Source of the DNA: Escherichia coli
GTDB lineage: Bacteria; Pseudomonadota; Gammaproteobacteria; Enterobacterales; Enterobacteriaceae
Strand: one strand, 5' to 3'
NCBI RefSeq assembly: GCF_050920415.1
Contig: NZ_CP169309.1
Length of the DNA stretch: 64,000 nucleotides
A model generated the notes under the pieces. It was not told the DNA's origin. It saw only the letters and a program-made list of their open reading frames with translations, and did no database searches. Position 1 is the first letter of the stretch, and every line of letters begins with the position of its first letter. A program made the translations under genes and the position numbers. Positions 25,737 to 50,893 of this stretch are shown here, piece by piece.

Positions 25737-25820
25737 GCTTTTGAGGAGGGTGGTCGGAAAGATGAACGTCTTATCTGGCCTACAAAACAACGAAAATTTA
25801 ATATATTGCACAGAGGAAAT

Positions 25821-25849
25821 GTAGGCCTGATAAGCGTAGCGCCTCAGGC
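25821..25849. repeat. REP-like palindromic unit
   Basis: GTAGGCCTGATAAGCGTAGCGCCTCAGGC, REP-type sequence. Confidence 0.6.
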
Positions 25850-25968
25850 AATTTTGTGTTTATCATCAGTCTCGAACCTGCTTCGGCAAGCTTTTACTTT
25901 TGGTGCAGACGGAAAGATGAACGAGTATCTAAGCTATTAATAATAGACTTTGCAAGAAATCATTACAT

Positions 25969-43380: not shown

Positions 43381-43490
43381 GCCAGATGCGCTACGCTTAT
43401 CTGGCCTGCGCGGTCATTGCAATATATTGAATATACAATGTTTTGTAGATCAGATAAGGCGTTCACGCCGCATCCGACATGAACAACACG
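43381..43490. repeat. REP/BIME element
   Basis: GCCAGATGCGCTACGCTTATCTGGCCTGCG and GATAAGGCGTTCACGCCGCATCCGACA REP units. Confidence 0.85.
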
Positions 43491-44519: not shown

Positions 44520-44540
44520 TTTTCTCTCCTCCAATAGCAA

Positions 44541-44565
44541 AAACGAGGAGCGTTTCTCCTCGTTT
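44541..44565 (-). terminator. Hairpin with T-tract (minus strand) between the REP cluster and the yqjG RBS
   Basis: AAACGAGGAG-N5-CTCCTCGTTT stem-loop. Confidence 0.5.
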
Positions 44566-44587
44566 GAGACTGATGGCAAACGCAAAA

Positions 44588-44690
44588 CTGCCTGATGCGC
44601 TATGCTTATCAGGCCTACGAGGTTTCTGCAATGTATTGAATTTGCATGTTTTTGTAGGCCGGATAAGGCGTTCACGCCGCATCCGGCATG
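44588..44690. repeat. REP/BIME element
   Basis: CTGATGCGCTATGCTTATCAGGCCTAC and GTAGGCCGGATAAGGCGTTCACGCCGCATCCGGCA. Confidence 0.85.
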
Positions 44691-44716
44691 AACAACGCGC
44701 ACTTTGTCAACAATCT

Positions 44717-44746
44717 GAAACGAGGAGTGTTCCCCCTCGTTTTTTA
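44717..44746. terminator. Hairpin with flanking A- and T-tracts downstream of yqjF (possibly bidirectional)
   Basis: GAAACGAGGAGTGTTCCCCCTCGTTTTTT. Confidence 0.5.
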
Positions 44747-44766
44747 TCGTTAAGTATAGCGCGTAC

Positions 44767-45159
44767 TTACCACTTTTTATTCAACAGACGGTCGATGCTA
44801 TACGCGCCCGGACCGGTAATCGCCAGCAGCAGGAATCCGCCAGAAATAGTCAGGTTTTTCATAAACATCAGCGAGTTCATGCCTTCTGCAAAATTGCTGT
44901 GAAATAAAAATGCCGTCAGCAGCGTAAAGCCCGCAGTAAACAGGGCAGTGGTACGTGTCAGGAAACCGAACAGGATTGCCAGACCACCACCAAACTCAAG
45001 CAGAATCACCAGTGGCAACATAAAGCCAGGGACACCCATCGCTTCCATATATTGTTGCGTACCCGCGTAGCCAGTAATTTTTCCCCAACCTGCCGTAATA
45101 AACAGAATCGGCATTAAAATGCGTGCGACCAGTACCCCAACATCTTCTAATTTTTTCAT
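44767..45159 (-). CDS. yqjF: DoxX-family inner membrane protein YqjF
   Basis: ORF 44767..45249 trimmed to MKKLEDVGVLVARILMP... Confidence 0.85.
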   Translation of the reverse strand: MKKLEDVGVLVARILMPILFITAGWGKITGYAGTQQYMEAMGVPGFMLPLVILLEFGGGLAILFGFLTRTTALFTAGFTLLTAFLFHSNFAEGMNSLMFMKNLTISGGFLLLAITGPGAYSIDRLLNKKW

Positions 45160-49070: not shown

Positions 49071-49199
49071 ATGCGCTCCAGGCATGATACGGCAGACTAT
49101 ATTTGTTATACCACTTTTGCGAGTTTAGCTCTACTCGCAGTGATGAAAAAGCCGCCTGAGAAGGCGGCTTTGAAGGGAAACTAAAACTTACACGAAGCC
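49071..49199 (-). promoter_or_regulatory. exuT-exuR intergenic region (exuR promoter, exuT terminator), copy A
   Basis: 129-bp intergenic region directly upstream of the intact exuR. Confidence 0.6.
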
Positions 49200-49405
49200 T
49201 TAATGTTGCGGTGCGGGATCGTTATGTGATTCCTGCGCCACCTCAATCGCCGGTTTGTGCAACACAGTCCAGATACCAGCGCACCCAGCAGGTCGAATAC
49301 TGCCAGAACTGCGAACAGCGGGCTGAAGCCGATGGTGTTGCACCGACTACCAGTGCAAACAGCGTACTTGCCAGCCATGCGGACATCCCGGTGAAATCGT
49401 TATCT
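49200..49405 (-). pseudogene. Degraded duplicate of the exuT 3' end (frameshifted fragment)
   Basis: Encodes ...TIGFSPLFAVLAVFDLLGAL matching the ExuT C-terminus, then frameshifted; no start codon or upstream part of the gene. Confidence 0.8.
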
Positions 49406-49465
49406 GCGCTCTTTCAGATCAGCGGCAAGTTGTTGATACAAACGGCGTGGTTCAGTGATTTCCAT
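49400..49465 (-). other. Truncated duplicate of the exuR 5' end: 21-codon [24 protein letters not shown] ending at a TAA created at the duplication junction
   Basis: Identical to exuR codons 1-20, then AGA TAA across the junction at 49405/49406. Confidence 0.75.
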
Positions 49466-49594
49466 ATGCGCTCCAGGCATGATACGGCAGACTATATTTG
49501 TTATACCACTTTTGCGAGTTTAGCTCTACTCGCAGTGATGAAAAAGCCGCCTGAGAAGGCGGCTTTGAAGGGAAACTAAAACTTACACGAAGCC
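49466..49594 (-). promoter_or_regulatory. exuT-exuR intergenic region, copy B (second copy of the exuR promoter; functional exuT terminator)
   Basis: Identical to 49071..49199. Confidence 0.6.
49541..49563 (-). terminator. Rho-independent terminator of exuT (identical copy at 49146..49168)
   Basis: GCCGCC-TGAGAA-GGCGGC hairpin followed by T5 on the minus strand. Confidence 0.8.
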
Positions 49595-50893
49595 TTAATG
49601 TTGCGGTGCGGGATCGTTATGTGATTCCTGCGCCACCTCAATCGCCGGTTTGTTCTGCAACACAGTCCAGATAACCAGCGCACCCAGCAGGTCGAATACT
49701 GCCAGAACTGCGAACAGCGGGCTGAAGCCGATGGTGTCAGCCAGTGCACCGACTACCAGTGCAAACAGCGTACTTGCCAGCCATGCGGACATCCCGGTTA
49801 AACCGTTCGCCGTCGCCACTTCGTTACGACCGAACACGTCAGAAGAGAGCGTAATCAGTGCGCCAGACAGGGCCTGGTGAGCAAAACCACCGATACACAG
49901 CAGCATAATCGCGACATACGGGTTAGTGAACAGACCGATCATCCCTGGGCCAATCATCAGCACCGCACCCAGCGTTACTACCATCTTACGGGAAACGATC
50001 AGGTTCACGCCAAACCAACGCTGGAACAGCGGCGGCAGGTAACCACCGAGGATACAACCAAGGTCAGCAAACAGCATCGGCATCCAGGCGAACATCGCGA
50101 TCTCTTTCAGGTTAAAGCCGTAAACTTTAAACATGAACAGCGGGATCCACGCGTTAAAAGTACCCCAGGCAGGTTCAGCCAGGAAACGCGGTAGCGCGAT
50201 ACCCCAGAACTGACGGTTACGCAGGATCTGACCAACGGACATTTTCTTCGCTGTGTCAACCTGGTGCTGGGCTTCCTGACCATTAATAATGTAGTCACGT
50301 TCTTCATCGGTCAGATGTTTCTGGTCGCGCGGATGCTTGTAGAAAATCAGCCATGCCATCGCCCAGATAAAGCTCAGCGCACCGGAGATGATAAATGCCA
50401 TCTGCCAGCTGTGCATCACGATTGCCCATACCACCAGCGGCGGCGCAATCATCGCACCAATCGAAGAACCTACGTTAAAGTAGCCGACCGCGATGGAACG
50501 CTCTTTTGCCGGGAACCATTCGGAACTGGCTTTCAGACCCGCCGGGATCATCGCCGCCTCTGCAGCACCTACCGCACCACGAGCAACCGCCAGGCCACCC
50601 CAGCTACCTGCCAGCGCGGTTGCGCCACAGAACACAGCCCACAGTACAGCAAACATTGCGTAACCGATTTTCGTACCCAGCACATCCAGTACATAACCTG
50701 CTACCGGTTGCATGACCGTATAAGCAGCAGAATAGGCTGCGATGATATAGGAATACTGTTGGGTGGAGATGTTTAACTCTTCCATCAGAGTTGGCGCAGC
50801 TGCCGCCACAGTGTTACGCGTCAGGTAACCAAGCACGGTGCCGAGCGTCACCAGTGCGATCATATACCAACGTAACCCTTTAATTTTACGCAT
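49595..50893 (-). CDS. exuT: Hexuronate (glucuronate/galacturonate) MFS transporter ExuT
   Basis: ORF 49595..51013 trimmed to MRKIKGLRWYMIALV... ATG at 50893. Confidence 0.9.
   Translation of the reverse strand: MRKIKGLRWYMIALVTLGTVLGYLTRNTVAAAAPTLMEELNISTQQYSYIIAAYSAAYTVMQPVAGYVLDVLGTKIGYAMFAVLWAVFCGATALAGSWGGLAVARGAVGAAEAAMIPAGLKASSEWFPAKERSIAVGYFNVGSSIGAMIAPPLVVWAIVMHSWQMAFIISGALSFIWAMAWLIFYKHPRDQKHLTDEERDYIINGQEAQHQVDTAKKMSVGQILRNRQFWGIALPRFLAEPAWGTFNAWIPLFMFKVYGFNLKEIAMFAWMPMLFADLGCILGGYLPPLFQRWFGVNLIVSRKMVVTLGAVLMIGPGMIGLFTNPYVAIMLLCIGGFAHQALSGALITLSSDVFGRNEVATANGLTGMSAWLASTLFALVVGALADTIGFSPLFAVLAVFDLLGALVIWTVLQNKPAIEVAQESHNDPAPQH

Follow-up and report, generated by a model that had tools for sequence, protein, structure and literature searches.

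Introduction

REP and BIME elements are among the earliest bacterial repeats described and hundreds of them are present in E. coli. In the spacer between yqjF and yqjG of the E. coli DNA studied here, a REP pair is bracketed by two hairpins of nearly the same sequence, and the question which this locus raises is whether the hairpin was duplicated when the element was inserted. The mechanism by which REPs and BIMEs are disseminated has been called unresolved (PMC8266576), and REPs have been described as having no MITE-like or transposon-like signatures (PMC3184786). Classically, the mechanism of an insertion is read from natural sites that exist in both a filled and an empty state and whose junctions are exact. 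Our comparisons of such sites make it very probable that the spacer is a filled allele, 247 bp in length, in which a conserved host hairpin received a BIME-1 unit at its foot and was itself duplicated as the target.

Organization of the spacer and its two hairpins

In the window, by which we mean the whole stretch of 64,000 nucleotides that was analysed, both genes are located on the minus strand. The coordinates of yqjF (DoxX family, 45159-44767, with its TAA stop at 44769-44767) and yqjG (glutathionyl-hydroquinone reductase, 44519-43533) were taken from the open reading frame list and checked, and the annotated locus in NZ_CP169399.1 was found to be identical to the yqjF-yqjG region of the window. 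In the direction of transcription of both genes, the 247-bp spacer consists of a CTATACT box, hairpin copy 1, a block of 152 bp, hairpin copy 2, TTGCTATT, the GGAGGAG sequence and the yqjG ATG. The CTATACT box (44759-44753, minus strand) begins 7 nt past the yqjF stop and is a candidate sigma-S-type -10 element for yqjG, while GGAGGAG (44532-44526, minus strand) is the ribosome-binding site of yqjG, conserved as GGAG/GAGG in 63 species. As a separate observation, yqjF of the window strain (44767-45159) differs from that of other E. coli, other carriers of the insertion included, at 20-24 of 393 positions (5-6%), and this unusual divergence suggests an imported segment.

Copy 1 of the hairpin, AAACGAGGGGGAACACTCCTCGTTT, lies nearer to yqjF at 44742-44718 on the minus strand; it retains an upstream A-run that extends to 44745, and in the alignment it corresponds to the one hairpin that K-12 and ST131 have. 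Copy 2, AAACGAGGAGAAACGCTCCTCGTTT, lies nearer to yqjG at 44565-44541 on the same strand, where it is followed by TTGCTATT; it retains the sense U-tract and is terminator-like. The two copies are in register, each being 25 nt in length with 22 of the 25 positions identical and with a distance of 177 nt from start to start. The original prediction had described two near-identical direct hairpin repeats. Its first string, AAACGAGGAGCGTTTCTCCTCGTTT, was found at 44541-44565 as given, while the second, which starts at 44717, has 29 nt and so ends at 44745 and not at 44746. Although each copy is palindromic, the term direct repeats is correct since the loops fit the direct orientation better: compared by eye, the loop positions match at three of five in the direct orientation and at none of five in the inverted one. 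The copy at 44541-44565 is separated from GGAGGAG by 8 nt.

Copy 44541-44565 forms a perfect 10-bp stem and RNA folding gave -15.1 kcal/mol for copy 2 and -14.8 kcal/mol for copy 1. A degenerate pattern of the hairpin matched the 64-kb window only twice, at these two copies, with 0.00 matches expected from 100 shuffles. Copy 2 was reported by the terminator scan with 10 pairs, a loop of 5 and the tail TTGCTATTGG; it has the G+C-rich 10-bp stem of an intrinsic terminator and three T of the stem foot, then TTGCTATT. Copy 1 is followed on the sense strand by CAGATTG and not by a U-tract, the terminator scan was silent there, and it does not qualify as an intrinsic terminator in the sense direction; on the opposite strand its T6 run is kept. 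The single hairpin of K-12 has terminator features like those of copy 2, with UUUUU. Elsewhere in the window, a direct repeat of at least about 125 nt with a period of 395 nt (starts near 49100 and 49495, within 49100-49620) carries the hairpin AAAGCCGCCTGAGAAGGCGGCTTT twice; this repeat looks like a tandem duplication.

The hairpin across Enterobacteriaceae

A scan with YqjG, using one genome per species, yielded 80 Enterobacteriaceae loci, from which 63 spacers (about 60 species) were aligned. Most of the 80 loci were observed to have a spacer of 61-81 bp in which CTATACT(G/T)A after the yqjF stop is followed by one hairpin and then by GGAG. The hairpin takes the form (A)AAGCGAGGAG-N4-CTCCTCGCTTTTGCTAT. 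Pairing is kept in 98.9% of the cells of the alignment of 63 spacers and four of the ten pairs change on both sides in a compensatory manner. None of 500 shuffles reached the observed score and slid controls were only 55-75% paired. The G-U pairs of the hairpin in these spacers occur in the sense orientation only, which points to a structure at the RNA level. Within the stem GAGGAG/CUCCUC, three pairs are invariant and most others are over 90% conserved across genera, and the rest of the spacer is variable.

As judged from these alignments, the hairpin is a host element which is single in most E. coli and in the other genera. It adjoins the yqjG ribosome-binding site in all genera; on the same comparison, its position just upstream of that site is ancestral and is not an effect of the BIME. 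The original prediction was to be checked by comparing the yqjF-yqjG spacer across Enterobacteriaceae, and that comparison returned a single hairpin with no BIME at that position in the 63 spacers. Two hairpins without a BIME, the arrangement at odds with duplication around an inserted BIME, were absent from every locus examined, that is from the 80 species and from the E. coli alleles.

The same spacer was observed to carry other repeats in several genera: an ERIC-like element in Klebsiella oxytoca and other REP types in Citrobacter, Superficieibacter, Kluyvera and others. These repeats are found at different positions and the hairpin is not duplicated around them.

The 152-bp block is a BIME-1 unit

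The block between the hairpin copies (44717-44566, minus strand) is a complete BIME-1 (RIP/RIB, REPIN-like) unit of 152 bp. On the minus strand it consists of a left terminal motif of 30 nt (44717-44688), a REP with inverted arms, GCCGGATGCGGCGTGAACGCCTTATCCGGCCTAC (44687-44654), an L-type linker of 35 nt (44653-44619) which aligns with those of the copies at fepA-entD and yqjG-yhaH, a second REP with inverted arms, GTAGGCCTGATAAGCATAGCGCATCAGGC (44618-44590), and a right terminal motif of 24 nt (44589-44566). By the consensus of the REP types, the two REPs are of the Y and Z1 types, respectively. The REP pair of the original prediction was thus found at 44590-44618 and 44654-44687, while the unit that was inserted has 152 bp and not the approximately 100 bp given there. 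The terminal inverted repeats of the unit, CAGATTGTTGACAAA and GAGACTGATGGCAAA, are imperfect (11/15). Within the linker, ATTCAATACATTG (44641-44629, minus strand) is a predicted IHF-like site with one mismatch to WATCAANNNNTTR; the pattern is not significant over the window, but its position is the expected one and the neighbouring BIME-1 has it too (43420-43432).

Assignment to BIME-1 is based on the inverted Y and Z1 REPs, on the L linker of about 35 nt with its IHF-like site, and on the presence of a single extragenic unit with no tandem array. As in a REPIN, one REP is paired with the other when the sequence is folded by prediction, and the terminal motifs are conserved between copies. 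A match to Rfam ES036/CssrF was obtained at 44611-44651 with 38.4 bits, the gathering score being 37.6. A match to Rfam naRNA4 at 43448-43484 is under its gathering score; the ES036/CssrF and naRNA4 matches are BIME-1 linker and REP sequences.

Relatives of the insert are present in every E. coli genome and the closest of these is the fepA-entD BIME-1, with 92-93% identity. The similarity extends beyond the unit by 1 base on one side and by 3 on the other, bases that are unassignable; since it ends within 1-3 bases of the ends of the block, the block is a discrete member of a family with defined ends. A neighbouring BIME-1 in the yqjG-yhaH spacer (43509-43366, minus strand) has the same orientation and is 81-84% identical to the window unit. 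It abuts the yqjG terminator hairpin at one side and has no second copy of that hairpin. This neighbour was considered as the donor and set aside, its identity being below that of the fepA-entD copy. The block was also considered as a MITE, that is a non-autonomous DDE transposon, and this was rejected in view of the imperfect terminal repeats, duplications that range from 22 to 29 nt by site and no related transposase identified. A further BIME-1 in the window (25740-25890) has a degenerate left REP and stands directly after a terminator; a 14-nt direct repeat, CGGAAAGATGAACG, is found within its left REP and again about 45 nt past its right end.

Filled and empty alleles

The filled allele was found in 77 of 5,426 complete E. 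coli genomes, counted as those in which at least 80% of the locus query was covered. The matched span is 521 bp in filled genomes versus 343 bp in the others, and 5,348 of the 5,425 genomes with a match to the locus lack the insert. K-12, ST131, O157 and IAI1 carry the empty allele, which has a spacer of 69 bp with one hairpin; in K-12 MG1655 and ST131 this hairpin reads AAAAAACGAGG(A/G)GGAAGCTCCTCGTTTTTG. When the window was aligned with K-12 and ST131, copy 1 was observed to retain the left flank with its A-run and copy 2 the right flank with its T-run. This is the geometry expected from duplication of the whole hairpin of 24-25 nt as a target. The terminator duplicated around an inserted BIME, as it had been proposed, is borne out: most E. 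coli and the 63 other Enterobacteriaceae spacers have one hairpin with no BIME, and the window has a hairpin, a 152-bp BIME-1 and a hairpin.

Besides the minority of E. coli, E. albertii and a cryptic clade were found to have filled alleles. In the E. albertii type strain this site holds a BIME that equals the window insert in size, is inverted and 74% identical to it, and is likewise bracketed by the duplicated hairpin. Strain E69 retains half of an insert of this inverted type, with copy 2 only. A metagenome contig, which is E. albertii by its flanks, carries an insert of the window type that is identical at 146 of 152 positions and has a right end like that of the inverted type. Across its backgrounds (E. 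coli haplotypes, E1V33 and the E. albertii contig) the window-type insert is 96-100% identical, with flanks that differ by 4-12%.

From these distributions we infer both the mechanism of insertion and the history of gain and loss at yqjF-yqjG. The history appears to be a mosaic: either a single ancient insertion was later inverted, lost many times and to some extent transferred, or this hairpin served as a target more than once. As proof of a second independent insertion, the inverted insert of E. albertii was considered and does not suffice, its 74% identity matching the divergence of the orthologous yqjG-yhaH spacer (76%) and the other contig having the window-type insert. Variants specific to one hairpin copy were likewise considered as proof of a single origin, which is weakened by SMS-3-5, where copy 1 has A and the window has G.

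It is quite conceivable, though a little short of an even chance, that of the two states the filled one is the older in Escherichia, with a single insertion after the split from Citrobacter and Salmonella and subsequent loss between the hairpins in most E. coli and in MOD1-EC7003. The 77 genomes would then be relics, loss would have occurred by recombination or slippage, and the E. albertii allele would be an inversion between the hairpin arms. The spread of filled alleles over E. albertii, Escherichia sp. E1V33 and phylogroup-F E. coli such as SMS-3-5 agrees with this history, as do a copy-2 variant, GAGGAGAA, common to all filled alleles, the about equal divergence of the inverted insert and the orthologous yqjG-yhaH spacer, and a single hairpin in ST131 that is the same as copy 1 of E. 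albertii. The flanks of filled E. coli also do not cluster relative to the empty ones. However, an insert that is 96-100% identical between flanks that differ by 4-12% is better fitted by recent spread or transfer than by ancient orthology, the K-12 hairpin (GAGGAGGAA) is no simple recombinant of the 5' part of copy 1 and the 3' part of copy 2, and both insert types occur in E. albertii.

Predicted consequences for yqjF and yqjG

The host hairpin, by its structure and position, would act as the terminator of yqjF and as a stem-loop in the yqjG leader. The single ancestral hairpin looks like a two-way terminator because it carries an A-run as well as a U-run. In the filled allele, copy 1 has lost the sense U-tract, so that yqjF transcription is predicted to continue across the BIME as far as copy 2. 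A published Term-seq list of 3' ends contains an end after yqjK and none for yqjF.

The CTATACT box matches what we take to be the sigma-S -10 consensus, and CTATACT(G/T)A is nearly invariant in the 63 Enterobacteriaceae spacers. A clear -35 element was not seen for this candidate and the sigma-70 scan gave no match there. Should yqjG be transcribed from CTATACT, its transcripts would have to run past the hairpin in all species. The original prediction had left yqjG with either read-through or a promoter within the repeat block. Read-through appears likelier, in the empty alleles as well, since a conserved box lies upstream of the hairpin or hairpins and no promoter-like site was found in the block; a promoter inside the repeats was rejected on the sigma-70 scan of 44523-44766, which was without a match. 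In the filled allele, the distance between yqjG and its candidate promoter would grow by 178 bp, with a leader that would be 178 nt longer and would include the REP pair. The literature search on a promoter, start site or RpoS dependence of yqjG or yqjF gave nothing usable.

The 3' arm of the hairpin, CUCCUC, and the GGAGGAG ribosome-binding site are complementary. The conserved hairpin could accordingly be seen, with rather low probability, as mainly a switch in the yqjG leader and not a plain yqjF terminator: CUCCUC would have two alternative pairing partners, the 5' arm GAGGAG and the ribosome-binding site, and the BIME would then alter the translation of yqjG or the stability of its mRNA. 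Such a role would suit a stem whose sequence itself is conserved across genera beyond the need for pairing (the three unvarying pairs and the others mostly above 90%), placed between CTATACT upstream and GGAG downstream in an otherwise variable spacer. Against this, the alternative pairing comprises just 6 bp, the stem with its U-tract equally fits an ordinary intrinsic terminator, and no experimental support for a switch was found in the literature. CTATACT(G/T)A together with the conserved GAGGAG/CUCCUC stem may also represent an undescribed leader element of yqjG.

By the insertion, a 69-bp spacer within a quinone-stress gene pair became a structured spacer of 247 bp. The U-tract of the yqjF terminator was moved to the far side of the BIME and the yqjG leader became longer, and for these reasons expression may differ between strains.

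The same bracket at other loci

Four further loci were found at which a hairpin, a BIME-1 of about 151-152 bp and a second hairpin are seen versus an empty allele with a single hairpin. Downstream of the DUF805 gene, which is the gene after yqjG, AAGCACCTTGCAAAAGGTGCTT is followed by a 151-nt BIME-1 and the same hairpin, with a repeat of 22 nt; this site is filled in Escherichia sp. E1V33 and in E. albertii, and E69 and MOD1-EC7003 have a single hairpin. It was detected by searching all fetched DNA for duplicated hairpins. The site uidC-ydgA is filled in 1,751 of 5,426 genomes, K-12 among them, with a 29-nt repeat. At rutG-ymdF the filled allele occurs in K-12 and ATCC 8739 and the empty one in strain E2 (repeat of about 23 nt), and at yccJ-agp ATCC 8739 is filled and K-12 is empty (repeat of about 26-27 nt).

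A scan of metagenomes with the 17-mer at the left end of BIME-1 gave 120 loci, about two thirds of which were chance matches in unrelated DNA. When a full BIME-1 was required, about a dozen distinct true sites were left, a small sample picked by a single 17-mer, and three of these have the arrangement of hairpin, unit and hairpin with both states among complete E. coli genomes.

At all five loci the duplicated segment was observed to be the local terminator-type palindrome, to within 0-3 nt, and its length varies from 22 to 29 nt. The ends of the insert likewise abut the feet of the hairpins within 0-3 nt at each bracketed locus. The CAGATTG end (in gene sense) lies beside the upstream hairpin copy in five of six filled alleles, the exception being yqjF-yqjG of the E. 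albertii type strain. The recurrence of the same filled and empty pattern at five loci argues for a target duplication whose length follows the structure of the target. A duplicated hairpin was missing, or a hairpin was present at one side only, at fepA-entD, at yqjG-yhaH and at three metagenome sites. Decay or loss of one hairpin copy after an old insertion may account for these sites, or they may be exceptions to the rule; at fepA-entD the BIME occurs in 5,345 of the 5,426 genomes.

The observations at these loci also bear on two other origins of the bracket. The two hairpins may have arisen independently, by tandem duplication or re-creation of a terminator, with the BIME landing between them later and leaving no insertion footprint. 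Each of these events is known separately and the combination is logically possible, with nothing specific in its favour. It is very improbable given that no locus with two hairpins and no BIME occurs in the 80 species or the E. coli alleles, that four other loci have the bracket too, around hairpins that differ from one to the next, and that the insert ends within 0-3 nt of the hairpin feet each time.

Least probable of all, and hardly tenable, is that the hairpins belong to a mobile element of about 200 bp inserted whole. Its 42-nt terminal inverted repeats (44539-44580 and 44703-44744) were indeed found with 76% complementarity and the whole spacer folds well (z = -6.8), but the hairpin is conserved at the site in species that have no element, its pattern occurs nowhere else in the window, and other copies are free of it (fepA-entD) or flanked by a local hairpin of their own.

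Proposed mechanism of insertion and relation to known systems

For BIME-1 (REPIN) units in general, we put forward tentatively, as a rule that may well turn out otherwise, that their targets are terminator-type hairpins, with integration at the hairpin feet and duplication of the hairpin as a whole, the length of the duplication (22-29 nt) being set by the target and not by an enzyme. Since the duplicated length follows the hairpin and not a fixed stagger, the folded target hairpin would direct both joins. Two routes may be envisaged. In the first, strand transfer would occur at both feet of an extruded hairpin or cruciform and would be followed by gap repair. In the second, a template switch during replication would exit at one foot of the hairpin, copy BIME-1 and re-enter at the other foot, so that the hairpin would be copied twice. 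Once in place, the direct hairpin repeats would permit precise loss of BIME-1, and the facing inverted arms of the hairpins (CTCCTCGTTT ... AAACGAGGAG) would permit its inversion. Together, loss through the direct repeats and inversion through the arms would explain the filled, empty, inverted and half-deleted alleles across Escherichia.

The window unit resembles BIME-1, RIP and RIB elements in architecture, size, REP types, linker and extragenic position at the 3' end of a transcription unit. The presence or absence of whole BIME-1 units from strain to strain was reportedly described by Bachellier et al. in 1997, a paper cited in PMC3333891. Whereas BIMEs and REPs have been described without transposon-like signatures (PMC3184786), the window unit has defined ends, imperfect terminal repeats and a duplicated target hairpin. 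It is like the elements of the REPIN-RAYT system in that two inverted REPs move as a unit, in being polymorphic between strains and in a divergence such as that of a long-lived sequence population. However, the REPIN-RAYT model, with a Y1 TnpA-REP of the IS200/IS605 type, does not predict the hairpin duplication of 22-29 nt that is seen here, and single-strand cut-and-paste of the IS200/IS605 type makes no target duplication (PMC2817692).

Flanking direct repeats of the target, terminal inverted repeats and a single copy of the target in the empty state are features which the window unit shares with DDE transposons and bacterial MITEs such as ERIC and Correia. The duplications made by DDE transposons have a fixed length of 2-14 bp which is set by the enzyme, whereas those at the BIME-1 sites are 22, 23, 24-25, 26-27 and 29 nt and correspond to the local palindrome. 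During CRISPR integration by Cas1-Cas2, both borders of a palindromic target of about 28 bp are attacked and gap repair leaves a copy at each side of the insert, which is the logic of the first route above; in E. coli that process uses IHF, and the BIME-1 linker has a predicted IHF-like site. This likeness is an analogy only, as the insert here has 152 bp versus 33 bp and the targets here are ordinary terminators. Direct repeats of 25 nt around a self-pairing insert of 152 bp are furthermore a classical substrate for precise excision of the Tn5/Tn10 type. Such loss would leave a single hairpin, as in most strains; at this locus it is deduced from the distribution of alleles.

In the literature accessible to us, no earlier description of hairpin duplication around BIMEs was found; key BIME papers of the 1990s which lie beyond that reach may already contain it. 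The element itself is a BIME-1, which is of a known kind, at a site that is unoccupied in K-12, and the finding turns an old open question into a specific prediction that can be tested. If the rule is true, duplication of the target hairpin would be the first signature of REP/BIME spread at the level of sequence. It would argue against plain single-strand cut-and-paste in the style of IS200/IS605 and would favour either staggered strand transfer with gap repair at a cruciform or copy-choice replication across the hairpin.
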